From IMG/VR virus record IMGVR_UViG_3300036793_000098: a stretch of DNA of 20,000 nucleotides, one strand, 5' to 3'. Of this stretch, positions 1 to 11,535 are shown piece by piece. This stretch comes from an uncultured virus (IMG/VR IMGVR_UViG_3300036793_000098) (taxonomy: Duplodnaviria; Heunggongvirae; Uroviricota; Caudoviricetes). The position numbers were made by a program, and so were the translations under genes. A model generated the notes under the pieces. The model made no database searches. It saw only the letters and a list, made by a program, of their open reading frames with translations, and had not been told where the DNA came from. Position 1 is the first letter of the stretch. Every line of letters starts with the position of its first letter.

Positions 1-1323
1 GTCGACGAAATACACGTCCTCCCAGCTGTTCCGCGACACCGACCGGGACAGGTCCACCCCGGAGATCTCGATGGACAACCCGCCGCCGGTGTTGCCGCCA
101 CCGGAGCCGGTGACCCCGTTCCCGCCGCCACCGGACCCGGACGAGCCGCCGGTGGTTCCGCCGGTGACGGTGATGTTCGTGTTGTTGATCGAGAACAGGC
201 CCAGCGACACGAGTTCGGCGTTGGAGGCGTTAGTAGCGACCCGCACCTCGAGGTTGGACACGCTCGGCGTGGGGTCGGTGACGTGCAGCCGGGTCAGCGT
301 GACCCGGGTCTGCACGGTCTGCCACACGCTCGTACCCGGCAACAACCGGGCGACGGGCTGGTCGTTGAAGGCCGGCTGCCACGTCAGACCGCCGTCGACG
401 CTGGTCTCCACCGTCACCGTCGAACCCACGGCCGGCGTCGCCTGATCCCAGTGAATCACCGAGTTGGTGATCGGAGACTGCGGGATGGCCAGCGGCGGGC
501 TGATCCGGAACCCGGTCAGCTGGGTGAACACCTGCGGGGCCGCGTCGATCTCGTTGGGCGACGTGCTCATCGTGAAGTGCGTTTGCGTGTTCGGGATGCT
601 GGAGGTCGCTACGACGCCCGCGTCGGTCTCGTTCGGGGACGCGGTCATCGCCACGGTGACGTCGGGGTTTTGGGCGAGGAACAGTGACGTTGCGGCCCAA
701 GTCGCATTACTCGCTGCCGGCGGACTGAAGGGAGCACTAAGAGTGCCACTGGTGCCTGATGATAGAAAGGTTTCGCCCGCCGCGAGTACCGCCGCGAAAC
801 CGGTCGTAAGGTCGCTGCTGTATCCGATCTGAGTCATTCCGGACGCTGGTGACAGGGTCGTGGCAACAGCCGCACCGACTAGCAGCATGGAGAATGTCAC
901 GACCGCACCACCGGCGGTCACCGATACGCTCGGGGCGGGCACCGTAGACGCAGACACGGCGCTTGCGGAGGCACTTGAGGGGGCCCACGTCTGTGCGAGA
1001 TTAGGATTCCGCACCGTGAAGGACAGCATCCCCGCCGCCACTCCTTGACTAAAAGTCAATACACCGTCCACAGAGGAAGGTGTCAGCGTCTGCGTGAAAA
1101 TGGCGATTGTCCAGTTGCCGCCAATGACGGTGGTCTGGTAGCGCTTAGTCCATCCAGGAAATGAGGAGATCGTGGCGACACTGCTGGTGAAGCCAATGAC
1201 GTAGATGACGCGCAGATCATTAGTCTGGAAACTGGAACCGACCGTCAGGGGGTACGTGGCCGACAGAGCATGAAGACCAGTTGCGTCGGATACCGTGTCC
1301 AGGAACAACAGTGGGTACGGCAT
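1..1323 (-). CDS. Minor tail / tail-tip protein, partial (>=441 aa, runs off the left edge). Contains a variable N-terminal beta domain, a beta-sandwich domain and the C-terminal part of a DUF5047-like tail protein
   Basis: Hand translation: ATG at 1323, 3 nt after the upstream TGA, with no stop down to position 1 (MPYPLLFLDTVSD...TGFRISPPLAIP...VETSVDGGLTW...ELVSLGLFSINN...SIEISGVDLSRSVSRNSWEDVYFVD). Missing from the ORF track because it has no stop in the window. Confidence 0.85.
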   Translation of the reverse strand, partial: MPYPLLFLDTVSDATGLHALSATYPLTVGSSFQTNDLRVIYVIGFTSSVATISSFPGWTKRYQTTVIGGNWTIAIFTQTLTPSSVDGVLTFSQGVAAGMLSFTVRNPNLAQTWAPSSASASAVSASTVPAPSVSVTAGGAVVTFSMLLVGAAVATTLSPASGMTQIGYSSDLTTGFAAVLAAGETFLSSGTSGTLSAPFSPPAASNATWAATSLFLAQNPDVTVAMTASPNETDAGVVATSSIPNTQTHFTMSTSPNEIDAAPQVFTQLTGFRISPPLAIPQSPITNSVIHWDQATPAVGSTVTVETSVDGGLTWQPAFNDQPVARLLPGTSVWQTVQTRVTLTRLHVTDPTPSVSNLEVRVATNASNAELVSLGLFSINNTNITVTGGTTGGSSGSGGGGNGVTGSGGGNTGGGLSIEISGVDLSRSVSRNSWEDVYFVD

Positions 1324-1326
1324 GAC

Positions 1327-1782
1327 TCAGGACGCCGTCGCGTATACGCCGGAGGCGAACTGGGCAATCAGGTCGCTTCCGGTGGTGGTGGCGGTGAAGT
1401 CGTACGCCGTCATCGGAATGCACGCCGAGTCCGGTGAGCTGGACAACGGCCGGTACGCGGTGACCAGCTTCCCCAGCACGTCATTCGACGCGCCACCGGC
1501 GGCGAACCAGGTCTGGTTGCCCACCGCCACCGTGTTCACATTGGTGGTGAAGTTCTGCGAGATGGTCAATCCGCTGGTCAGCACCTTGCGCCCGTAGTTG
1601 GTGAACGTGGCCTCGGTGTTCGACGCGAGCATCGTGGACAGCGTGGTGTAGTCCTGCAGCGTGGCGTCGACCTGCAGGCCGGAGGACTTGAGCAGGAGGA
1701 CCAGGACGGCGTCGGACCCGGTCGCCAACGATGCTTGCTGAATGAACCGACCTTTAGCAATGGTAAAGATAAAGTTACTAAT
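1327..1782 (-). CDS. Virion-associated protein of the tail region (NFxFxIAKG-type N-terminus), probable ATT start
   Basis: The track ORF 1327..1728 extends 18 codons upstream (ISNFIFTIAKGRFIQQAS) to ATT at 1782. GGGAG lies 6 nt upstream and an in-frame TAG is at 1798-1800. The gene body has strong GC3 bias. Confidence 0.75.
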   Translation of the reverse strand: MSNFIFTIAKGRFIQQASLATGSDAVLVLLLKSSGLQVDATLQDYTTLSTMLASNTEATFTNYGRKVLTSGLTISQNFTTNVNTVAVGNQTWFAAGGASNDVLGKLVTAYRPLSSSPDSACIPMTAYDFTATTTGSDLIAQFASGVYATAS

Positions 1783-1837
1783 GGCTAACTCCCGGTGCTA
1801 CATTCGGCAAATCGAGCCAGTACGGGTCAGAGGAAGA

Positions 1838-2218
1838 TCAGGTCCAGCCCAAAATGAGCGAGCCGGAAACCGGGTCGCCGATCGTTCCGTTGTTGGTGCC
1901 CTGGTTGAATGTGGCCGCGCTGTTGTCCAAGTCCTGGACCGCATCAACCTCGGTGATCAGTACCCCGCGCCACAGCTGCGCCCGAGTGCCGAACGGCGCC
2001 AACACCGCCGACATATCCGCCGGCGTCAGCGAACCGTCCGGATCGGCGAGGGTGGCGTCGAATTGCCGCATCTGTGCCGCCGTGCGGTCCGCGGTCACGT
2101 TGCCGGCCACGATCGGCAGCTGCATGACGACGGTGCCGTTCTGGATGATGTCGCACCGCGACACCGCTTGATGTGATCCTTGAATGGCGGCCTGGAAGGC
2201 CGATGAAGTGGGTTGCAC
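1838..2218 (-). CDS. N-terminal portion of a DUF5047-like minor tail protein (126 aa)
   Basis: The pattern SxxFxxAIxGSH...GNVTADRTA..R...LAPFG....WRGV matches my recollection of actinophage DUF5047 tail proteins. It follows the distal-tail-like gene, with a GTG start and GAGGGG upstream. Confidence 0.7.
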   Translation of the reverse strand: MQPTSSAFQAAIQGSHQAVSRCDIIQNGTVVMQLPIVAGNVTADRTAAQMRQFDATLADPDGSLTPADMSAVLAPFGTRAQLWRGVLITEVDAVQDLDNSAATFNQGTNNGTIGDPVSGSLILGWT

Positions 2219-2230
2219 AATGACCGCCCC

Positions 2231-3829
2231 TCAGGACGTAATCGGCGGAGCGGCCGTACTGGTGTACGAGACGGAAACCTTGTGATAGTTCGGTACGAGC
2301 TCCCAGTCATAACTCATGTCGCTGCCCGCCGCGCCCGGTCCGAACAGCACGTAGAGCTGTTCACCGTTCGGGTACTGCACCAGCAGAATGTGTCCGGACT
2401 GGTCCAGCTGCTTGAACGCTGACCAGTAGTCCGCCGGCTGGTCTTTGTAGAAGTTCAGCGTGTACGTGCCTTCGGGGCCGTACTGCGGACCGTTCACGAC
2501 GATCTTGTCGACCAGTAGCTCACCGGAGATGACTTCGAACGTGCCCTGCACCCGCCGCACCGTGCGCGCGTCGCCCTGATACGCGATCGGGAACGGGGTG
2601 TTCACCGTCGGGTCGAGCACGTCCTTCAACCATGGAACGTCGACCTGCGGGGTGACGGTGACAACGTTCGAGTACCCGGCGGCGGCGAACAGCAACGACC
2701 CGGTCTGCCCATAGGCCAGCACCCGGTACTTCGACGGAATGTTCAGCGGCGCCTCGTAGTCGTACACCGTCATCGTGCCGCCCGTGTTGGTCAGCAGCAG
2801 GGCGTTGCGCACCGGCCCGTAGGTCACACCGTTGTCCTGCGACGACTGGACCGCGTACGCCACCGTGGCCGGCGTGGGGCCGCCGGTGGTGATGTCCAGA
2901 CGAACCCGGTTATAGACACTGTCGAACAGCGAGTTGGAGATCACCGCGTTCGGGGCGCCGGAGATGGATTGGGTCCAGGTGATCGACGCGATCCCGGACG
3001 GGAAGTCGTTCGACCCCGGCCAGGTCTGATTGACCTGCACATAGGCCGAGTAGCCACCGTTAACGATGTCCGTGTTCAACGTCCACTGCAGATCTTCCCC
3101 GAAGGTCAACCCCGAGGTTTGGACCGGTGGGGTGACGAACGGGACGAAGCCACCGGCCGCGACCTGCGCGGCGGTGTAGATGGCCACGTTGTACGCGGCC
3201 TGCGGGTTGCTGTCCGGGGACGTGTAGGTCCAGGTGACCGTCGGCCGACACGTCGTGGTGATCGTCCCGGTGGGGGCGGTGACGGTGATGACCGCCTGCT
3301 GGGTGTAGGTGATATCCACATACACCTCGGAGATCCGCAACGGGTTCCCTGAGACGTCATCGCGCCCGAGATGCACCTCGAACTGGTTGAACGAGGCCAA
3401 CGTCCACGGGTTGCCGTCCGGGTCCGACGTCAAGTTCTCCAGCTGCTGCTCCACCCACACGACCGTGGGTTGTCGTGGGCAGCGCCACCCGAACAGCAAC
3501 AGCAGGATGAAGTCGATGATGACCGTGATGATGTTCGGCGGGCGGTGGCAGCGGAACCAGCCCAAACAGATCGGCTGCGGCGCCGGCCACACCACCGTTT
3601 GGATGCGGATCCGCACCCCGACCGAGCTGATCTGAGCCCCGGTCGGGATGGTGATCGTCGGCAGCCCGAGCCGCAGCCGCTGGGTGTCCAGGCGGCACCG
3701 GGGGGTGAGCTGCACATAGGTGGTGTCGGTGTTGTCGGACAGGGCGGTGTGTGCGTTCGCCGCGCCGACCACCGACCAGGAGCCGAGCTGGACGGTGGAG
3801 TTCGGTCGGACCGTGGTGACCGCGCTCAT
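2231..3829 (-). CDS. Distal tail (Dit)-like minor tail protein with N-terminal beta/FN3-like domains
   Basis: 532 aa, directly after the tape measure gene with ATGA overlap. Thr/Val/Tyr-rich beta composition. YDYEAP and WLKDxxxPxxN motifs are typical of actinophage post-TMP proteins. Confidence 0.75.
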   Translation of the reverse strand: MSAVTTVRPNSTVQLGSWSVVGAANAHTALSDNTDTTYVQLTPRCRLDTQRLRLGLPTITIPTGAQISSVGVRIRIQTVVWPAPQPICLGWFRCHRPPNIITVIIDFILLLLFGWRCPRQPTVVWVEQQLENLTSDPDGNPWTLASFNQFEVHLGRDDVSGNPLRISEVYVDITYTQQAVITVTAPTGTITTTCRPTVTWTYTSPDSNPQAAYNVAIYTAAQVAAGGFVPFVTPPVQTSGLTFGEDLQWTLNTDIVNGGYSAYVQVNQTWPGSNDFPSGIASITWTQSISGAPNAVISNSLFDSVYNRVRLDITTGGPTPATVAYAVQSSQDNGVTYGPVRNALLLTNTGGTMTVYDYEAPLNIPSKYRVLAYGQTGSLLFAAAGYSNVVTVTPQVDVPWLKDVLDPTVNTPFPIAYQGDARTVRRVQGTFEVISGELLVDKIVVNGPQYGPEGTYTLNFYKDQPADYWSAFKQLDQSGHILLVQYPNGEQLYVLFGPGAAGSDMSYDWELVPNYHKVSVSYTSTAAPPITS

Positions 3830-6800
3830 CGCTTCTGCCCCTGCGACACCGAGGTCAGCTTGTCGATGACCCGCTCGATCCTGTGGTCAGTACGAATGTC
3901 GATCTCCCGGCCGTCGATGTAGAGCCGGTGCTCATGCACGCAGTGCTTGCTCTGTCCGCCCTGCTGCGCCTGCCCCGAGGCGATCGAGATCGGCGCGTTC
4001 TGCGGCTGCATCGACGCACCGGAGCCGGCAAGACCGAGCAGGCCCATGCGCCCGAGTGCGGCCGTGGCCTCACCGGTCGCGGCCGAGGCCAGCCCGAGCG
4101 CGGCGGCCTTCACCGTGCCCAAGGACTGGGTGATGCCCTTGGCCAAGTTGATCCCGAACAGCTGACCCACGTTCTGGGCGTCCACCGTCGCGGTCGCGTG
4201 CAGTACCTCGATAACAGTGATCCCGGTGTCATGGGCGGCCTTGCGGCACCAGCGCTCCTCCTCGCGGATGCCGCGCCAGAACCCTTCGCCGAACCAACGC
4301 CCGATCTCGTGCAGCAACCGGGACGGGGACGACGTTTCCAGGGCGGAGTTGACCGCGTCCACCGAGCCCTGCGCCATCGAGGTGGCGGCGGCAGCCACGC
4401 CGGTCTGGGTGCCGACGATGCCGTTGACGAAGCCCTGGTTGAAGTCCTCTCCCACGGCTTCCATGACCTTCGACGGGGACGCCGACCCGATCGCGCCCTG
4501 CGCACCGGCCACCGCGGCGCTACCGACCGACGCACCGGCCGAAGCCGCACCGCCGGTGCCGCCACCGCCTCCGGAAGAGCCGCCGCCGGACAGCCCGGCT
4601 TCCTTCATCAACGAGATCAGCTTCTGCAGGTCTTCGATCAGCTTCTTCACTTCTTCGTCGAGCTTCTTCGCGGCCTTGGCGCCGTCCTCGAACGCCCGCT
4701 CCATGGCCTGGCCGGCTTCCGGGGCGATCTGGGTGATCTCGTCGAAGTCCTGGATGAGCGACGCGACGTCCTGCTCCAGATCCAGCACCGACTGGTCCAC
4801 GTAGATGATCTGCTGCTGCAACTGGTACAGCTGCTCCACCGTGGTGCCCAGGTCGGTTTCCCACTGGTTCGTCACCGCGTCGGCGGCCGCGATCGACTGG
4901 GTGAACTGCTGCACCGAGGAGTTCAGTTGCTGCAGCGTCTGCTGGAACTGCTTGAGCACCTGCAGGCCCTGGGTGACGGCTTGCACGAACTGCTGCATCG
5001 ACTTGACCAGCTGGGTGAACTGCTGCACCGCTTGGCGCAGCTGCGCGACGAACTGGGTGAATGACTTCACGAACGACGTCCACAGCGGGGTCACCGCCTT
5101 GAGCTGGGCGTCGAAGGTGGTGAACGACTTCACGAACGTCGTCCAGGTCGCGTTCGCCGCCTTCACCTGCGCGGTGAATGTCGAGAACGACTTCACGAAC
5201 GCGGTCCACAACGGACCGACGGCCTTGAGCTGCGCGTCGAAGGTGGTGAAGTTCTTCACGAACGTCGCCCAGATCGGCCCCACGGCCTTGATCTGTGCGT
5301 CGAACGTCGTGGTGTCCTTCACGAACGTCGCCCACGGGGCGGTCGCGGCCTTGACCTGCGCGGCGAAGGAGGTGAAGTCCTTCACGAACGTCGCCCACGT
5401 CGGACCGGCGGACTTCAGCTGCGCCCCGAACGTGGTCACGTCCTTGACGAAGGTGGCGAACGGGCCCGCCACCTCCTTGACCGCCGGGCCCAGCTTCTGC
5501 ATGTCCGCGACCACCGGGTCCATCCCGGCCTGCACAGCCTTGAACGCCGGGCCCAGGTTGGTCGCGGCGGTGTTCAGGTCGGTCAGCGGCTGCTTCGCGT
5601 CCGAGGCCTGCTTCGCCAGGGACTGCACATCGGTGCCGACCTGCTTCGTCGGATCCGACAGACCCTCCACGGAGGACTTCGCGTCGTCCAGCGGCGGCTT
5701 GATGTCTTTGACCGAGGAGCCGAGGTCGTCGACCGGCTTCTTCGCCTGGTCGAGCTTGTCGCCGGTGTCCTTCGCGGCGTTACCCAGATCGTTGGTCGGG
5801 GCCACCGCGCCCTTGTTCGCGTCCGCCAAGTCCTTAGCCTTGTCGCCGGTGGCCGCCATCACGACACCCTGGTTCTGCACCGGGGGTGCGGCGTCGTTGC
5901 TGGCCGCGATCAGGTCCCGCTCGGACTGGGTGGTCGTACCGAGGGCCTCGTCCATGTGCGCGATCGCCAGCTTGCACTTGTCGAAGAAGTCGACGACCTT
6001 CGCGCCCAACCCGATCAGATCAGAGATCGCGGTGAACAGACCGGTGACGATGTCGATAACACCCTTGATCACCGAGGTGATCGCCGGCCCGTTCTGGGCG
6101 ATGGAGTCCTTCAGGGCGCTGAACGCGGGCTCGCACTGCTTGATCGCGTTCATGAAATCGGTGCCCAGATCGGTGACGATCTGGATGATGTCCTGGATTT
6201 CCTTGCCGATCTCCCCCGATGCGGACGACACCGACCCGGAGAACTTGTTCATCTGGGCGGTGCTGTCCCCGATCGCCTTCATCACCGCGACACCGAGATT
6301 GGTGAAGGCGTCCATGGCCGGCTTCATCGCCGGCTGCACCTTCTCCGCCATCGACTTGAACGAGTCGCTGAGCCGGCCCACGTCCTGGATCAGTGGGGTG
6401 ATCTCCTTCGACCCGATCGTGATCAACGCGGCGCCCAAATCGCCCAGCTTCCCGATCAACTTCTCGGCAGCCGGCACCGCCGCGTCCCACGCCCCAGACG
6501 CGTTATGGAACGCGGTCGCCATGTGCTCCACGGCCAGAATGCCGGCCTGCATCAGGCCGGGCAGCGCGTTGAAGAACTGCCGGAACTGCGGCGCCAACGT
6601 CTGCGTGATCACGTTGAACCCGTTCGCCAGCTCCTTCAGCGACGCCACGACCTTCGGGATGGCCTGCTGCGCGACGGAGGCGATCGTCCGGAACGCCGCC
6701 TTGAGCGGCTCCGCGATCTGCGGCAACGCCTGGCGCACCGCCTGGATCATCTGCTGCAGCACTTGACCGAACGGCTTCGTGATGTCGGCGAAGTCCTTCT

Positions 6801-7902
6801 TGATCTCGGTCGCCAAGTCCTTGAACTGCTTCTTCACTTCCTTGTTGCCCGACTCGGCCGCGACCACCAACCCGGTGATCGCCGCGCCGGCGGCGAGCAT
6901 CGCTATCCCGAAGCCGGCGAACGCGGCCACCGCCACCACGGCCAGCGCGGCAACAGCCGCGACCAGGGCGGCGGCGGCCACGGCGGCGATCGCGGCGGCG
7001 GCGGCGAACACGCCCATCGCCATCGCGGCCATCGGGATGACCCCGGCCAGTGTCTCCATGGCTGCGGCGAACCCGGACGCGGCGCCCGTCGCCAACCCCT
7101 GCATCGACCCGGTGACGGTGCCGATCACCTGGTCCAGGTTGTTCATCGCGCCGACCACGAGTCCGACACCCTGCTCCACGTCGGTGAAGCCGCCCTCGAT
7201 GACCTGGAACGCGCCGGTGACGTCGTTCAGCGCGGTCTCGAAGGTGATAAAGCCCTGCTCAGCGGCGGTCACCCCTGACTCCAGGGCGGTCATCCCACCC
7301 TCGAGCGCGGTGACCCCTCCCTCCGCTGCCTGTGCGGCGCCCTCGATGGCGGTCAATCCGCCCTCCAGGGCCTGCACGCCGCCCTCCAGGGCGGTAGCGC
7401 CCTGCTCAGCGGTGGTGAGGCCGGACTCAAGGGCCGTGACGCCCTGCTCGGCGGACTGTGCGGCCCCCTCGACGGCGGTAAGGGCGGACGTCATCCCCTG
7501 AGCGTCCGTAGCGAACGTCGCCACTACCTGCTCAGTAGTGGTCACCGCCCCCTCCAGGGCGACAAAGCCCTGCTCGGCCTCTTTGATCTGGCTCGAGTCC
7601 ACGTCGATCTTGATGGTGTCGTTGTCGAGGGCATCCGCCTCGGCCTTCAGCGCCGCGAGCTCCGCCTCGGCCTCCGCTACCCCTGAGGTGTCCACGTCGA
7701 TCTTGATGGTGTCGCCGGCGTCGGTCAGTGCCGCCTTCAGCGCCTCAACCTCGGCGATCGCGTCCGTGACTTGGGAGAAATCGACCTCGATGGCGATCTT
7801 CGAGTCCTTGAAGGACTCGAGGAGTGCCTTGAACTCTTCGACCTGCGCCTTGGCCTCTTCGGCCTCGGCGTTGAACCGGATAGTGAGCTCAGAATCGGCC
7901 AT
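3826..7902 (-). CDS. Tape measure protein (~1358 aa; alternative GTG start at 7911)
   Basis: Longest ORF, located after the chaperone frameshift genes. Helical Ala/Gln-rich repeats, an Ala-rich hydrophobic segment, two SPS(K/R)...G...GF..GI motifs and a C-terminal LYIDGREI. Confidence 0.95.
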   Translation of the reverse strand: MADSELTIRFNAEAEEAKAQVEEFKALLESFKDSKIAIEVDFSQVTDAIAEVEALKAALTDAGDTIKIDVDTSGVAEAEAELAALKAEADALDNDTIKIDVDSSQIKEAEQGFVALEGAVTTTEQVVATFATDAQGMTSALTAVEGAAQSAEQGVTALESGLTTAEQGATALEGGVQALEGGLTAIEGAAQAAEGGVTALEGGMTALESGVTAAEQGFITFETALNDVTGAFQVIEGGFTDVEQGVGLVVGAMNNLDQVIGTVTGSMQGLATGAASGFAAAMETLAGVIPMAAMAMGVFAAAAAIAAVAAAALVAAVAALAVVAVAAFAGFGIAMLAAGAAITGLVVAAESGNKEVKKQFKDLATEIKKDFADITKPFGQVLQQMIQAVRQALPQIAEPLKAAFRTIASVAQQAIPKVVASLKELANGFNVITQTLAPQFRQFFNALPGLMQAGILAVEHMATAFHNASGAWDAAVPAAEKLIGKLGDLGAALITIGSKEITPLIQDVGRLSDSFKSMAEKVQPAMKPAMDAFTNLGVAVMKAIGDSTAQMNKFSGSVSSASGEIGKEIQDIIQIVTDLGTDFMNAIKQCEPAFSALKDSIAQNGPAITSVIKGVIDIVTGLFTAISDLIGLGAKVVDFFDKCKLAIAHMDEALGTTTQSERDLIAASNDAAPPVQNQGVVMAATGDKAKDLADANKGAVAPTNDLGNAAKDTGDKLDQAKKPVDDLGSSVKDIKPPLDDAKSSVEGLSDPTKQVGTDVQSLAKQASDAKQPLTDLNTAATNLGPAFKAVQAGMDPVVADMQKLGPAVKEVAGPFATFVKDVTTFGAQLKSAGPTWATFVKDFTSFAAQVKAATAPWATFVKDTTTFDAQIKAVGPIWATFVKNFTTFDAQLKAVGPLWTAFVKSFSTFTAQVKAANATWTTFVKSFTTFDAQLKAVTPLWTSFVKSFTQFVAQLRQAVQQFTQLVKSMQQFVQAVTQGLQVLKQFQQTLQQLNSSVQQFTQSIAAADAVTNQWETDLGTTVEQLYQLQQQIIYVDQSVLDLEQDVASLIQDFDEITQIAPEAGQAMERAFEDGAKAAKKLDEEVKKLIEDLQKLISLMKEAGLSGGGSSGGGGGTGGAASAGASVGSAAVAGAQGAIGSASPSKVMEAVGEDFNQGFVNGIVGTQTGVAAAATSMAQGSVDAVNSALETSSPSRLLHEIGRWFGEGFWRGIREEERWCRKAAHDTGITVIEVLHATATVDAQNVGQLFGINLAKGITQSLGTVKAAALGLASAATGEATAALGRMGLLGLAGSGASMQPQNAPISIASGQAQQGGQSKHCVHEHRLYIDGREIDIRTDHRIERVIDKLTSVSQGQKR
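5040..5465 (-). repeat. Seven tandem 63-nt (21-aa) coding repeats in the tape measure gene
   Basis: TT(C/G)ACGAA recurs at 5066, 5129, 5192, 5255, 5318, 5381 and 5444, an exact 63-nt period. Protein unit is approximately WxxFVKxFTTFxAQLKAxxPx. Confidence 0.95.
7170..7590 (-). repeat. Degenerate 7/14-aa repeats (AEQGxTALEGG) in the tape measure N-terminal region
   Basis: Translation shows AEQGFVALEG, AEQGVTALESG, AEQGATALEGG, AEGGVTALEGG and AEQGFITFE. Confidence 0.85.
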
Positions 7903-8574
7903 CGAACCCACGCCCCCTATCCGGTTGTCCGTACTTCAGCTCGAACTGGTCCAACTCCAGGTCACCCGGGTCTTCCGCGCCCTGAGCGAACTGGGCGCCC
8001 CGCAAACTGGCGAAGGCTTGACGCGCGTCGTCGCGTTCCTGGCCGAACGGGCCCCGGATCGCCATCCACGCGTCCCACTCCGCCAAATCCGTGGCGGTAC
8101 CGCAGGCCCTCAGGAATGCGCGGCGGGAGGCGAACTTGAGATGGGCCGCGAGGTCGAGCTGGCGGAGGATGTCCGGGCGGCTCCGGATTTTCCCTCAAGC
8201 GCCTTCTTCGAGTCCTTCGTCATGTGCGACAACTTCCGGGCCAGATCCGCGATCCGCTCACACCCGGCCGAACCGAGCGAGTTCACCACCGCGATACCGC
8301 GACCGGTGTCCGGCCAAATGCGGGCACCGGATGCCTGCCGGGCCGCGAACACGACCAGGCGGGAAGTGTTGTTCGACATGTTCAGCTCGTAGTCGGAGCC
8401 ATCAATCTCGAACATCGGTGCCCGGTACTCGTCCATCTCCGCGGCGGTCAGCTCCTGCACCCACACCGAGCACTTCCACTCGGGAACGTCGATGCGCTGG
8501 CGGGCGGCCTCCCACTTGATGCCGCCGGAGTCGACCAGCTCGGGGAACTCGAAGTCGTCGTCAAACTCGCTCAT
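7889..8574 (-). CDS. Tail assembly chaperone, long (gpGT-like) form made by programmed -1 frameshift
   Basis: The -1 frame is open from the slippery site to the stop at 7889 (KIRSRPDILRQLDLAAHL...LAEWDAWMAIRGPFGQERDDAR...). It has a TGA just upstream of the slip site, and includes track ORF 7889..8086. Confidence 0.85.
8110..8574 (-). CDS. Tail assembly chaperone, short (gpG-like) form
   Basis: The motif VPEWxxxVWVxELTAAExDxY is typical of tail chaperones. AGGAG lies 8 nt upstream of ATG 8574 (the track start is 8607). Confidence 0.85.
   Translation of the reverse strand: MSEFDDDFEFPELVDSGGIKWEAARQRIDVPEWKCSVWVQELTAAEMDEYRAPMFEIDGSDYELNMSNNTSRLVVFAARQASGARIWPDTGRGIAVVNSLGSAGCERIADLARKLSHMTKDSKKALEGKSGAARTSSASSTSRPISSSPPAAHS
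8188..8194 (-). other. Programmed -1 ribosomal frameshift slippery site G GGA AAA
   Basis: The plus strand reads ttttccc at 8188-8194. This is an XXXYYYZ heptamer in the correct phase (GAG GGA AAA, E-G-K), the canonical actinophage chaperone slip site. Confidence 0.9.
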
Positions 8575-8622: not shown

Positions 8623-9051
8623 TCAGATTTCGATCGCGGCGCTAACCGCTTCCTCAGTCGCCGCGACGGCGGGTCCACGGCCGGCCTCGAACCCCACCGC
8701 GACGTAATGGGTGGCGGGCACGTGCACGTGGTGGGCGAAGATGGTGCGTGCGTCGATCTGGAACACCATCAGCGGGTTGCCGTAGTTGTCCCCGCCGGAG
8801 TTCTGGATGTTGTTGTAAACCGTGTTACCAGTGATCATCCAGCCTTCGCCGTCATCGTGTTTGTCGATGGAATCCCGCAACCGACCGGTTTTCACTGGGG
8901 CCGCGTCCTTCATCGACTGCACGAACGCATCCGCGCCGGGCGAGAGCACTTCGGTGAGGCCGGGGGGCTCGAGGACGTACTCGACACGCTTCAACATGTC
9001 CTGCACGTCGCCGAGCCCGTCCCACTCCGCCTCAATGCGGATTTCCGCCAC
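8623..9051 (-). CDS. HK97 gp10-like tail completion / neck protein
   Basis: Contains the motif APVKTGRLRDSI; 142 aa; start overlaps the major tail gene stop. Confidence 0.8.
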   Translation of the reverse strand: MAEIRIEAEWDGLGDVQDMLKRVEYVLEPPGLTEVLSPGADAFVQSMKDAAPVKTGRLRDSIDKHDDGEGWMITGNTVYNNIQNSGGDNYGNPLMVFQIDARTIFAHHVHVPATHYVAVGFEAGRGPAVAATEEAVSAAIEI

Positions 9052-9809
9052 TAGCTGTAGACAACGCCGCGCGCGAAACCGACCAGGGCCAGGAACGACG
9101 GGGTGGTACCCGAGATCGTCCAGTTGGCCCGCACCTGCGCCGGGATCGTCTGCTGCTTGGGCAGCACGATCCGCTGCGCCGACGCCGTGGTCGCCGCGGT
9201 GAACGCCATCCCAGGGATGTCGGTCCAGGTGGTGCCGTCCGGGGAGCCCTGGAACTTCAGCGTCATCGACGGAGTGGTGCCCGTGACAGAGAAGACGTGC
9301 AGCTGCGCGTTCGCGCCGGCGACGGTCGCCCCACCGTTCGGGGTGTTGTCCAACGCCGCGGACATGCCGGTCGTGGTGGTGAACGCGTTCGGGGACAGCA
9401 GGATGTAGCCGTCATCGACGTAACCACGGGCCATCATGGTGCAGTCGATGGTGACCGCACCCTTCAGCTTCGCGTCGATGTCGTACTTGGTGATGACCGA
9501 CGGCTGCATGACCATCGGGCCACCCAGGGGCCACCCGAGGGCGCCGTAGGCGGCGAGCACGTCGGAGTCCTGACCGAACCGCTGGTTCACGATCCCGTCG
9601 ATGTTGTTGTACCCGGGGGTGTAGAAGCCCTTGAGTTCGATCGAAGCCTTCTGGATACCGGCCAGGTCGTAGGAGAACCGGTCACCGAACACCGTCGCGT
9701 CGATCGTCGCGGCGTCCCGCTTGGCCTTCAGCTCGTTACCGTTACCGGACATGTCGTACTGGTCAAACGCGACCGCGACATTCCGGCCGACATACACCTG
9801 AGCGGTCAT
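9051..9809 (-). CDS. Major tail (tube) protein with C-terminal beta-sandwich extension
   Basis: The N-terminal ~135 aa has the tube-like pattern IDATVFG...LAGIQKASIELKGFY. The C-terminal domain has GSPDGTTW and VRANWTISGTTPS. Located upstream of the chaperone and TMP genes. Confidence 0.8.
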   Translation of the reverse strand: MTAQVYVGRNVAVAFDQYDMSGNGNELKAKRDAATIDATVFGDRFSYDLAGIQKASIELKGFYTPGYNNIDGIVNQRFGQDSDVLAAYGALGWPLGGPMVMQPSVITKYDIDAKLKGAVTIDCTMMARGYVDDGYILLSPNAFTTTTGMSAALDNTPNGGATVAGANAQLHVFSVTGTTPSMTLKFQGSPDGTTWTDIPGMAFTAATTASAQRIVLPKQQTIPAQVRANWTISGTTPSFLALVGFARGVVYS

Positions 9810-11175: not shown

Positions 11176-11535
11176 CTAGACGAGTTCCCCACCGGTCACC
11201 GAGAACGTCAGCGACGGAGTGGTGCCCGCGATCGTCCAGGTCAGCCGGACGAACCGGTCCAGCCCGGCGAACGACTTACGCTCGCTGGACACACCGGTCT
11301 TCTGCGCGAACGAGCCGACCGTGTACCAGGTGGAGTTATCCGCACTGGTCTCCAGCTTCAGGTCCAGCGTCGGTGAACCAGACACGGCGGTGACGTTCAG
11401 GAACAGGCTGCGCAGCCCGCTCCGGGCACCGACCTCAACGGCCGGGGCCGACGCGGTAGTGGTCCGGGCGGCGGACGCGACGGCCGGGAACAACTCGGTG
11501 TGGACGTACGTTCCGTCCGTCTTCTGGTAGGGCAC
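11176..11535 (-). CDS. Small beta-sandwich virion protein (possible capsid cement/decoration protein)
   Basis: AGGAG RBS and GTG start. LETSADNSTW...RFVRLTWTIAGTTPS is paralogous to the major tail C-terminal domain. Confidence 0.65.
   Translation of the reverse strand: MPYQKTDGTYVHTELFPAVASAARTTTASAPAVEVGARSGLRSLFLNVTAVSGSPTLDLKLETSADNSTWYTVGSFAQKTGVSSERKSFAGLDRFVRLTWTIAGTTPSLTFSVTGGELV

Follow-up and report, generated by a model that had tools for sequence, protein, structure and literature searches.

The split hub gene and its neighbours

The window, i.e., the whole stretch of 20,000 nucleotides that was analysed, contains the structural module of a soil siphophage, whose host group is probably the Actinomycetota, including the gene for the central hub protein of the tail tip. 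The tape measure gene (3826..7911) is followed by a 532-aa ORF for a tail protein and then by ORF1, which places the hub gene after the tape measure. ORF1, ORF2 and ORF3 all lie on the minus strand, in the layout that was first described from the letters of the window, i.e., 1838..2218 (126 aa), 1327..1728 (133 aa) and 1..1323 (441 aa, open). They comprise the following features:

1838..2218, minus strand: ORF1, 126 aa, the 5′ half of the hub gene, with a GTG start at 2218 and its stop at 1838-1840
1955..2218, minus strand: ORF1 residues 1-88, N-terminal hub-fold strands, found in every unsplit hub
1841..1954, minus strand: ORF1 residues 89-126, first part of a nested domain, ending in a conserved G-x-L-x-L strand
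1783..1837, minus strand: ORF1-ORF2 spacer, non-coding, with a sequence-predicted GGGAG Shine-Dalgarno at 1789-1793
1327..1782, minus strand: ORF2, 133 aa from TTG 1728 or, likelier, 151 aa from ATT 1782
1..1323, minus strand: ORF3, 441 aa, running past the window edge (open)
658..1323, minus strand: ORF3 residues 1-222, a fast-evolving all-beta N-terminal domain
523..657, minus strand: ORF3 residues 223-267, a leader or linker with two E-T/I-D-A motifs, missing in unsplit forms in the alignments
217..522, minus strand: ORF3 residues 268-369, the nested-domain remainder (QLTGFRISPP...; Asp-box-like ETSVDGGLTW)
1..216, minus strand: ORF3 residues 370-441, where the hub fold continues until the window edge cuts it; relatives have ~230 aa more
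91..165, minus strand: ORF3 residues 387-411, a Gly-rich 25-aa loop within a hub hairpin

In ORF1, LAPFGTRAQLWRGV corresponds to residues 73-86, and the stop follows 40 aa downstream. In ORF3, GFRISPP occupies residues 271-277 (window 513-493), ELVSLGLFSI begins at residue 370 (window 216) and SIEISGVDLSRSVSR at residue 416 (window 78). Both ORFs are in different frames and 1.3 kb apart, so the hub domains are not in a single polypeptide.

Colinearity of both ORFs with one hub protein

ORF1 and the distal part of ORF3 are confirmed to be consecutive parts of one hub protein. The unsplit metagenomic protein P0003 (500 aa) aligns with its residues 1-123 to ORF1 residues 1-124 (E 2e-32) and with its residues 126-270 to ORF3 residues 268-441 (E 1e-28), leaving a gap of two residues only between the two matches. 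When P0003 was compared with the whole window by tblastn, minus-strand 2206..1847 was retrieved for residues 5-123 (E 6e-27) and minus-strand 522..1 for residues 126-270 (E 2.5e-25), with the third-best match at E 0.5; the similarity of both ORFs to the unsplit hub is far above chance. The inserted stretch, first placed at about 520-1837, maps to 523-1837. The break sits within a small beta-rich domain that is nested in a Mu-gp44/gp27-type hub. The sequence-only reading was also right that this second, nested domain is split, as P0003, colinear with both ORFs, carries it in one piece: ORF1 residues 89-126 are colinear with P0003 residues 89-123, and the remainder in ORF3 (residues 268-369) corresponds to P0003 residues 126-225. 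ORF3 residues 370-441 correspond to P0003 residues 226-270 and to residues 94-142 of gp22 from phage Jflix2. The Gly-rich loop, which falls in a gap relative to P0003, is kept in 12 of the 12 aligned relatives and has a pLDDT <50 at residues 388-414 of the model.

P0003 and P0005 (499 aa) contain the same hub and the same nested domain as one chain, without any leader, variable domain or Gly-rich loop. They are 45% and 36% identical to ORF1, respectively, and ~38-43% identical to the 3′ halves. Unsplit DUF5047 hubs are also encoded by cultured actinophages, i.e., by Streptomyces phage Samy (gp23, 'baseplate hub protein') and by the Rhodococcus phages Jflix2 (gp22), REQ1, Shagrat and Madraxi. 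These are single chains of 370-377 aa that have ~7 residues in place of the nested domain and the break. Over their first ~88-110 residues they share 31-37% identity with ORF1, of which residues 1-88 align with residues 1-88 of both Jflix2 gp22 and Samy gp23. The gene is likewise located behind the genes for the tape measure and a minor tail protein in Samy and Jflix2. The fold relatives of the actinophage hubs are Mu gp44 (1WRU, 9KI1) and the 43-kDa tail proteins 3D37 and 3CDD. Among 93 GenBank phage records matching the 3′ half, none covers the nested domain. Moreover, megablast of window 1-4000 against GenBank phages gave no match, nor did tblastn of ORF3 as cut by the window, and no match to window 1-2300 exists in G001 (7.2 kb), the nearest record.

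The same division is found at the level of protein families. In phrog_1887 ('tail protein'), ORF1 residues 1-86 cover positions 285-376 (E 3.3e-5) and full-length ORF3 homologues cover positions 403-654 (L004) or 367-654 (L008), with E 2e-47 and 2e-44, respectively, while the unsplit hubs of Samy and Jflix2 cover positions 285-654/656 in one chain. The ORFs thus match consecutive, essentially non-overlapping parts of one profile, as anticipated. The link to DUF5047 holds by way of PHROG, BLAST and fold, but Pfam DUF5047 itself (PF16466; cut-off 25 bits) scores neither half, with no match in ORF1, ORF3 or full-length homologues at E<=0.1-1. On unsplit relatives, PF16466 reaches 112 and 42 bits over residues ~40-164, a region straddling the break.

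Structure prediction distinguishes what both halves carry. The family profile matches PDB entry 3d37 (E 6.5e-4). The model of P0003 is a complete hub (mean pLDDT 86.1) that matches 8fqc_C1, 9gtr_q, 3d37, 9ki1_G and 1wru with Z 22-26; for instance, 310 residues are aligned with the Milano hub 8fqc_C1 (Z 25.7) and 301 with Mu gp44 1wru (Z 22.6; model 18..499 to chain 3..337). The model of the ORF3 homologue L006 begins to match these hubs only at model residue ~367 (Z 12.9-15.7 for the C-part) and aligns 45-71 fewer residues than P0003 in the five chains compared, i.e., 255 vs 308 with 9rku_Af, 250 vs 295 with 3d37_B, 246 vs 301 with 1wru, 262 vs 331 with 9gtr_q and 255 vs 326 with 7aef_q. In 17 of the 27 hub rows counted, the first aligned chain residue is 58-96, e.g., 58..337 for 1wru_A. 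Since these alignments start late in the hub chains, the 3′ half lacks the part that is carried by ORF1. The lambda and RcGTA entries 8IYK, 8K35 and 6TBA are among the fold matches as well. ORF3 itself ends at residue 441 in the window, and its hub C-part is predicted from relatives sharing 43-75% identity with it over the common part. The nested domain is modelled poorly in P0003 (pLDDT 54-69 over residues ~95-220; last strand at residues 120-122). In L006, its remainder has a pLDDT of 87-94 without the strands of ORF1; being modelled confidently alone, the domain might not need these strands.

The split layout is old and conserved, and is no recent accident or fresh insertion in this genome. 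The three-gene layout is kept in all six IMG/VR contigs (6/6). Of 19 metagenome loci, 17 have the ORF1-like gene followed downstream by an ORF2-like one, and the remaining two stop <400 nt past ORF1. Identical pieces in another soil study bridge both the junction at 522 and the ORF1 stop. Among the best 150 ORF1 relatives, 105 are long hubs (median 373 aa) that match residues 1-88 only, and 30 are stand-alone proteins ending <=12 aa from the same strand. The hub N-terminus is present in 4/4 unsplit controls and in 0/120 relatives of the 3′ half, the full-length ORF3 homologues being 671-721 aa. Both hub halves are under purifying selection, with a dN/dS of 0.04-0.30 for both parts of ORF1 against six relatives. 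Gly119 of ORF1 is invariant and Leu121 occurs in 94% of 49 relatives; the length and end point of ORF1 are kept down to ~30% identity, and ORF1 accompanies the 3′ half wherever enough DNA is seen in contigs and metagenome loci. The sequence-only reading had held that a stand-alone ~126-aa protein with a complete fold in most relatives would speak against a split. Stand-alone proteins of this length are common among the relatives, but they all end at the same strand with the other half present, and are therefore halves rather than complete folds. The split-hub clade consists of dozens of protein clusters, some of which are binned with Nocardioides, Mycobacterium and Streptosporangiaceae MAGs; the labels on its pieces are 'hypothetical', transferred or none. 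IMG/VR scans with P0003 and P0002 retrieved no relative and hence no locus.

The interval between the two halves

The interval between the halves contains one to four small tail-accessory genes, varying among relatives, and an ORF2-like gene is always present in it. The spacer between ORF1 and ORF2 ranges from ~15 to ~75 nt among relatives and contains stops. ORF2 is a small conserved protein that matches phrog_26662 (E 1.4e-22). Judged from codon conservation, its start would more likely be ATT 1782 (151 aa) than TTG 1728: the 18 upstream codons are conserved, and ATT 1782 stands where five relatives have ATG or GTG. The ORF2 profile matched no PDB chain at E<0.79. Likewise, ORF1 and ORF2 gave chance-level rows only against Pfam at E<=1, with no membership of the gpL, gpK or gpI families. 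In the protein atlas, ORF2 fell in unnamed viral clusters only, in addition to a sub-threshold lead to Pfam Gp80 at 0.88. This candidate was rejected, as Gp80 was matched by 1/16 members (E 0.027) and hhalign against Pam4 gp33, a true Gp80 member that adjoins the Pam4 ORF2 homologue, gave a probability of 0.2%. Downstream of their ORF2 homologues, Hiyaa and Pam4 encode proteins without similarity to ORF3, and the papers listed for cyanophage Pam4 include none on gp34.

The N-terminal domain of ORF3 is only 31-38% identical at the amino-acid level in five relatives, of which the flanks are ~80-95% identical. In the L006 model it has a pLDDT of ~86-98. In L025, this variable domain is a separate gene of 250 aa that aligns end-to-end with residues 1-247 of a fused ORF3 (E 4e-26), which bears out the earlier description of the cassette as one whole gene plus the 5′ part of another. 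The modules at the break differ among relatives and consist of a globular variable domain, tandem repeats or a 36-aa leader only; the 440-447-aa type of 3′ half starts with the 36-aa version of the leader. In the L006 model, the leader has a pLDDT <50 at residues 224-265. Its origin as a degenerate copy of the tail of ORF1 was considered and rejected, no alignment being found at E<=100. The atlas returned nothing usable for the N-terminal domain. The only fold rows are the C-terminal domain of chlamydial Pgp3 (4jdn_A, Z 7.2) and the Pan3 needle (9vzi_B, Z 6.9); as these values are within the common range of the fold search, they provide no more than a lead. The variable domain is a likely candidate for a host-recognition or peripheral module.

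A probable baseplate hub of two chains

The best explanation for these elements, and one that we consider probable, is that the baseplate hub, of the Mu-gp44/T4-gp27 type, is assembled from two chains, ORF1 and ORF3. ORF1 would contribute the first ~88 hub residues and the first strands of the nested domain, which lies in a long hub hairpin. ORF3 would contribute what is left of the nested domain plus the other ~300 hub residues, preceded upstream of the break by a disordered leader and the fast-evolving all-beta domain. We infer that both chains fold together without covalent joining, the interface being formed by the shared nested domain and the N-terminal hub strands; ORF1 and ORF3 would thus physically complement each other and be incorporated in the virion. 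The assembly would be a trimer of ORF1+ORF3 pairs, as in the cryo-EM structures of lambda gpL+gpJ and RcGTA gp13+gp15 described in PMC10721106. The break would free an N-terminus at the hub periphery, where the varied modules would sit.

Lambda and RcGTA are the closest known parallels. According to the same source, gpL/gp13 contain the first hub domain together with the N-terminal portion of an insertion domain, gpJ/gp15 contain what remains of that domain and the other hub domains, and other genes lie in between; in T5, T4, 80alpha and the type VI secretion spike the hub is one chain (PMC10721106). Here too, profile and fold ranges indicate a small upstream protein with the N-terminal hub part and a large downstream protein, with tail genes in between (K and I in lambda; ORF2 here, and one to four genes in relatives). 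At the sequence level, the halves of the nested domain are colinear with the contiguous domain of P0003, and the junction is internal in ORF3, after 267 residues. There are several differences from lambda as well. The family is of the Mu-gp44/DUF5047 type, ~370 aa when unsplit. Moreover, ORF1 lacks the Fe-S cysteine cluster of gpL, having a single Cys at residue 22, the intervening genes have no similarity to anything named, and the 3′ half has extra modules upstream of the break. Because close unsplit relatives exist, the split arose inside its own family, separately from lambda. The two-gene hub resembles the known two-protein hub of lambda and arose separately in a different hub family. Literature searches on DUF5047, split baseplate hub genes, baseplate gene fission, strand complementation and phage Samy returned no description of this arrangement.

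Different explanations concern the origin of the split or the fate of ORF1. As to origin only, the split could be older in the clade, with the unsplit P0003 and P0005 being re-fusions after loss of the interval, so that no cassette landed. In a tree of the hub C-part, P0003 and P0005 stand apart from each other within the split subclade, with support of 81-89. This support is weak, however. Holding the 62 split rows together costs 25 log-likelihood units but is not rejected (AU p 0.236). Furthermore, the outgroup consists of plain unsplit hubs, which are far more common (105 of the best 150 ORF1 relatives), and splitting a gene is a more frequent event than rejoining it exactly in frame. Re-fusion is thus a conceivable but rather unlikely course of events; both an insertion and a later re-fusion are compatible with the tree.

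Regarding the fate of ORF1, it is improbable that the protein is functional in another role, as an assembly chaperone or transient hub cap, instead of being permanent in the virion. The results presented here do not separate permanent from transient association, and lambda has small proteins for tail assembly (K and I) encoded between its hub genes, as described in PMC10721106. Nevertheless, the strands missing from the 3′ half belong to the conserved core of every solved single-chain hub, and the lambda counterpart gpL is described there as a structural part of the tip (PMC10721106). Very unlikely is a scenario in which ORF1 is a leftover outside the hub, and the 3′ half acts alone or has its missing strands replaced by the N-terminal domain. 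Although the nested-domain remainder and the hub C-part of an ORF3 homologue are predicted confidently alone, purifying selection acts over the whole of ORF1, whose length and end point are retained to ~30% identity and which is found with the 3′ half wherever enough DNA is seen. The N-terminal domain cannot substitute either: many relatives encode it as a gene of its own, have repeats in its place or lack it altogether.

The sequence-only reading had also allowed for the hub being rejoined at the RNA or protein level, for which Pfam and Rfam scans gave nothing in support. Covalent or RNA-level rejoining (by a split intein, an intron or bypass) into a single-chain virion hub has the exact colinearity with the one-chain relative P0003 as its only support, and is extremely improbable given the 0 Rfam matches in window 1-2600 at E<=1 (group I/II intron models), the lack of any Hint/intein or endonuclease family in ORF1, ORF2, ORF3 and homologues (Pfam, PHROG), the purifying selection on the genes of the interval and their varying number (one to four), the stop-containing spacer of variable length after ORF1, the 36 to >400 unrelated residues that precede the junction in the 3′ half (too long and too varied for a C-intein) and the lack of a joined form in the contigs of two DNA runs. 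Two-chain assembly, for which lambda gpL/gpJ offers a published structural precedent, would be the better reading.

NrdA of Aeromonas phage Aeh1 is, likewise, an essential phage gene product of which the gene is cut in two by inserted DNA, in this case the mobE endonuclease gene. PMC3045599 describes reassembly of two polypeptides with no RNA or protein splicing, with the new tails at the broken termini being required for function. NrdA is an enzyme and a single case with a homing endonuclease insert, whereas the hub is a structural protein, has no nuclease and is widespread. In fractured genes, as presented in PMC2677866, trans-splicing split inteins flanking a homing endonuclease rejoin the products. 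Here, a gene is likewise interrupted by a free-standing gene, but none of these intein or endonuclease elements was found.

Within the two-chain hub, the break may be kept as a plug-in site, an idea that we put forward tentatively and regard as less than likely. The cut, lying in a surface domain, would free an N-terminus at the rim of the tail tip, on which any host-recognition module could be hung. Modules would be swapped by recombination between two conserved flanks, ORF2 and, on the opposite side, the leader plus the nested-domain remainder. In this way, the interval would have turned into a small variable island of tail-accessory genes inside the hub gene, and ORF2, as the constant companion of the split and the positional counterpart of lambda gpI, would lock or plug the two-chain hub.

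Phage annotation and tail-tip modelling usually treat hubs as one chain. In the present case, an entire clade of uncultured actinophages has its hub encoded as two pieces, which constitutes a second, independent two-protein hub of the lambda type, for which unsplit sister forms are available for comparison. With these sisters, the tolerance of a beta-rich structural domain to being cut can be tested cleanly. For annotation, a protein of 120-130 aa that terminates in G-x-L-x-L, with an ORF2-like gene and then a protein of 440-720 aa behind it, can be taken as one hub. Lastly, the break is a candidate exchange site for host-range modules; should it indeed be kept for plugging these in, the split hub would be a host-range cassette holder with an origin independent of the lambda L/J split.

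Two ORFs as consecutive parts of one tail hub

The window's genes are all on the minus strand and make up the structural module of a siphophage. PHROG families were found for the large terminase, portal, protease, major head protein, adaptors, tail terminator, major tail protein, assembly chaperone and tape measure, and a sheath protein is absent among the PHROG-typed structural genes. The features relevant here are the following.

9051..9809, minus: true major tail protein (PHROG family)
3826..7911, minus: tape measure (1361 aa, PHROG)
2231..3829, minus: ORF without family match, just after the tape measure (532 aa)
1838..2218, minus: ORF1, 5′ half of the hub gene (126 aa)
1327..1728, minus: ORF2, the gene between (133 aa counted from its first TTG)
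1..1323, minus: ORF3, 3′ half of the hub gene (441 aa; runs past the window edge, last ~230 codons outside the window)

The 532-aa protein, matched by no Pfam or PHROG family, lies between the tape measure and ORF1, where a distal tail protein would be placed; its unusually hydrophobic stretch NIITVIIDFILLLLFGW is kept in the related contigs L004 and L008. A 119-aa ORF (11176-11535, minus) upstream of the adaptor genes matches positions 138-236, the C-terminal part, of the major-tail-protein family, and may have an Ig-like or decoration domain in common with the major tail protein. Going by the MAG labels of relatives only, the putative hosts are Nocardioides, Mycobacterium and Streptosporangiaceae.

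A sequence-only reading had proposed that a DUF5047-like tail gene is split by a cassette of about 1.3 kb. Every motif named for this is found in place in the ORF listing, and the occurrence of the tail-hub gene in two ORFs is confirmed, as ORF1 and ORF3 are consecutive parts of phrog_1887 and of P0003, a metagenomic relative (500 aa) that carries the hub and a small beta-rich nested domain in one unsplit chain. No Pfam family was assigned to ORF1, ORF2 or ORF3. On the profile of PHROG family 1887 (‘tail protein’), ORF1 residues 1-86 match positions 285-376, and the full-length ORF3 homologues of L004 and L008 match positions 403-654 (E 2e-47) and 367-654, respectively. The hubs of Streptomyces phage Samy and Rhodococcus phage Jflix2 (370-377 aa), which carry Pfam DUF5047, span positions 285-654/656 as a single chain; the Samy hub is annotated as a baseplate hub protein, related to Mu gp44. 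In BLASTP, residues 1-88 of Jflix2 gp22 match ORF1 residues 1-88 (E 4e-15), and its residues 94-142 match ORF3 residues 370-438 (E 0.003).

At the sequence level, the decisive evidence for the split is the comparison with P0003 and a second unsplit relative, P0005 (499 aa), both obtained from an exhaustive HMMER search with ORF1 as query (397 hits at E<=1e-3). P0003 residues 1-123 are matched by ORF1 residues 1-124 (E 2e-32) and residues 126-270 by ORF3 residues 268-441 (E 1e-28), with a gap of two residues between the matches. Because tblastn of P0003 against the window gave matches at these two places and no other below E 0.5, the interval between the halves is window 523-1837, comprising the ORF1 stop, a spacer, ORF2 and ORF3 codons 1-267. 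Overall, the proposed split is thus supported.

The model of P0003 (mean pLDDT 86.1; hub >90, nested domain 54-69) matches complete solved hubs along their whole length. Z is 25.7 with the hub of Agrobacterium phage Milano (8fqc_C1; alignment of 310 residues), 24.3 with a Streptomyces injection-system spike (9gtr_q), 23.7 with Neisseria 3d37_B, and 23.4 and 22.6 with Mu gp44 (9ki1_G and 1wru); VgrG and T4 gp27 are among the matches too. In this model, the nested domain caps a long ribbon of two strands (78-98 and 208-241), and the break falls in the loop following strand 120-122. The model of the ORF3 homologue from the related contig L006 (mean pLDDT 81.9) gives matches to these hubs only from its residue ~367 onward (Z 12.9-15.7), with 45-71 fewer aligned residues than P0003 on the five chains compared. 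Across the 27 hub rows counted, the alignment begins at residue 58-96 of the solved chain in 17 and at <=20 in ten. Since the ORF3 model aligns only with the later hub part, the 3′ half lacks the N-terminal core strands encoded by ORF1.

Modules and genes in the break

In three unsplit hubs of the family (P0015, P0103 and P0021), the same loop, which follows R-G-V, holds other inserts, two of them lectin-like (YWRLGETSGTTA...) and one different again. Given these varied inserts, the hairpin is a general insertion hot spot.

ORF3 residues 1 to ~222 are predicted with high confidence as an all-beta domain, of which the framework is kept (MPYPL..LD, TVG..Q.GD.R, RNPN, SGTSGT) and which is 31-38% identical in five relatives, compared to about 80-95% for its flanks. 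In locus L025 the domain is a free-standing gene of 250 aa, aligning end-to-end with residues 1-247 of fused ORF3 (E 4e-26), and the 3′ half begins with a 36-aa leader only. When 120 relatives of the 3′ half were classed by the residues preceding the junction (ORF3 residue 268, window 522), 70 had 181-330 residues, mostly the globular domain, which in seven of them is replaced by tandem repeats of ~20 aa (about 198 residues). A short leader only was found in 38 (11-60 aa, typically 36; 440-447 aa in total), other repeats or domains of more than 330 residues in seven, and 61-180 or <10 residues in five that look truncated or mis-started. Fused and leader-only states interleave on the tree (11 and 7 changes, 85 rows). 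In the window, the leader is ORF3 residues 223-267 (523-657), which contain two E-T/I-D-A motifs and are predicted to be disordered. An ORF1-like protein of 279 aa, P0134, continues past the usual end with about eight tandem AQAVETDTA-type units related to the leader motif, and P0282 has similar repeats. A hub hairpin additionally contains a Gly-rich loop of 25 residues (G/S/T/N only; ORF3 residues 387-411, window 91-165), likewise predicted to be disordered, which every aligned split relative of this subclade shares and which is absent from P0003, P0005 and repeat-type 3′ halves.

ORF2 belongs to phrog_26662, which has no assigned function in PHROG, and is a constant companion of the split. 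Homologues also adjoin large tail genes in Streptomyces phage Hiyaa and cyanophage Pam4. These proteins (gp12 at L032 and gp34 at L033), 37-40% identical and from unrelated phages, are encoded immediately ahead of large tail genes or polysaccharide-lyase genes; Pam4 gp33, the neighbour of gp34, is a Pfam Gp80 fibre-family protein. Judging by the sequence, ORF2 probably starts at the ATT codon 1782-1780 (minus), with a GGGAG Shine–Dalgarno (1793-1789, minus) 6 nt ahead. At the protein level, conservation extends over the 18 codons preceding the first TTG, and the position of the ATT holds ATG or GTG in five relatives and ATT also in L004. In some relatives, one or two more small genes separate ORF1 from ORF2. 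Extra ORFs of 149-177 aa with alike C-termini (FEELR..W) are located between the ORF1-like and ORF2-like genes at 1201-1734 in L021 and at 5107-5556 and about 5540-6016 in L025. The hub-gene interval therefore gains and loses genes.

Conservation and history of the split layout

The split layout is a conserved architecture and no accident. Synteny is kept in relatives, the order ORF1-ORF2-ORF3 being common to six IMG/VR contigs (ORF3 671-721 aa, ORF1 64-94% identical). Among nineteen metagenome loci located by a profile of more distant ORF1-like proteins, 17 have an ORF2-like gene downstream of the ORF1-like gene and the remaining two stop <400 nt after it; six hold a complete ORF3-like gene (683-700 aa), the product of which matches P0003 residues 127-499 from its own residue 278-288 on. 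The best 150 cluster representatives of the HMMER search were re-scored with the ORF1 profile. Thirty stand alone (97-130 aa) and terminate <=12 residues from the same G-x-L-x-L strand; another 105, with a median of 373 aa, are long hubs matched over the first ~90 residues only, and nine are short fragments. The other six are long with further cover: P0003, P0005, two proteins with a lectin-like insert that differs from the nested domain and occupies the same loop, one repeat-tailed ORF1-like protein and one odd protein. A hub N-terminus is present in none of the 120 relatives of the 3′ half, versus all four unsplit controls.

Pairwise dN/dS between the window and six relatives was 0.06-0.26 for ORF1 residues 1-88, 0.04-0.30 for ORF1 residues 89-126, 0.07-0.60 for ORF2 and 0.10-0.63 for the nested-domain remainder plus hub part of ORF3. 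A second soil study contains identical contig pieces spanning the junction at 522 and the ORF1 stop, and no joined form of the gene was seen in two DNA runs. None of the 93 GenBank phage records matching the 3′ half covers the nested domain, and the split form is so far known from uncultured phages only.

A quick maximum-likelihood tree of the hub C-part (85 rows: 62 of 118 split rows, two unsplit nested forms, three other inserts and 18 plain hubs) unites split and unsplit nested-domain forms in one clade versus plain unsplit hubs (SH-aLRT 97). Both P0003 and P0005 are placed within a subclade of split forms with support of only 81-89, and a topology that unites every split row is not rejected (AU p 0.236). 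The data are compatible with one split following gain of the nested domain, and with later re-fusion giving the unsplit nested forms.

Assembly from two chains

No intron model, intein, endonuclease or recoding signal was found in the ORFs and interval by Rfam-type, Pfam and sequence inspection, and the interval is filled by conserved genes. A two-chain hub is the most economical reading, whereby the products of ORF1 and ORF3 would assemble as one hub without rejoining. According to a cryo-EM account of lambda, the first hub domain resides in gpL, L and J are separated by genes K and I, and gp13/gp14/gp15 of RcGTA have the same organisation (PMC10721106). The logic of a two-protein hub is common to gpL/gpJ and the present case. 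However, the present split arose separately from that of lambda. Unlike in lambda, the hub is of the Mu-gp44/DUF5047-type family, has close unsplit relatives and lacks the cysteine cluster of gpL; moreover, the genes in between have no sequence relationship to K and I, and the 3′ half bears additional modules in front of the break. Enzymology offers a functional analogue in NrdA of phage Aeh1, which is described as split by gene insertion, its two chains reassembling with new terminal tails as an aid (PMC3045599). Altogether, the locus is a two-gene hub with an island of accessory genes in the break, a variant of the lambda-type split hub.
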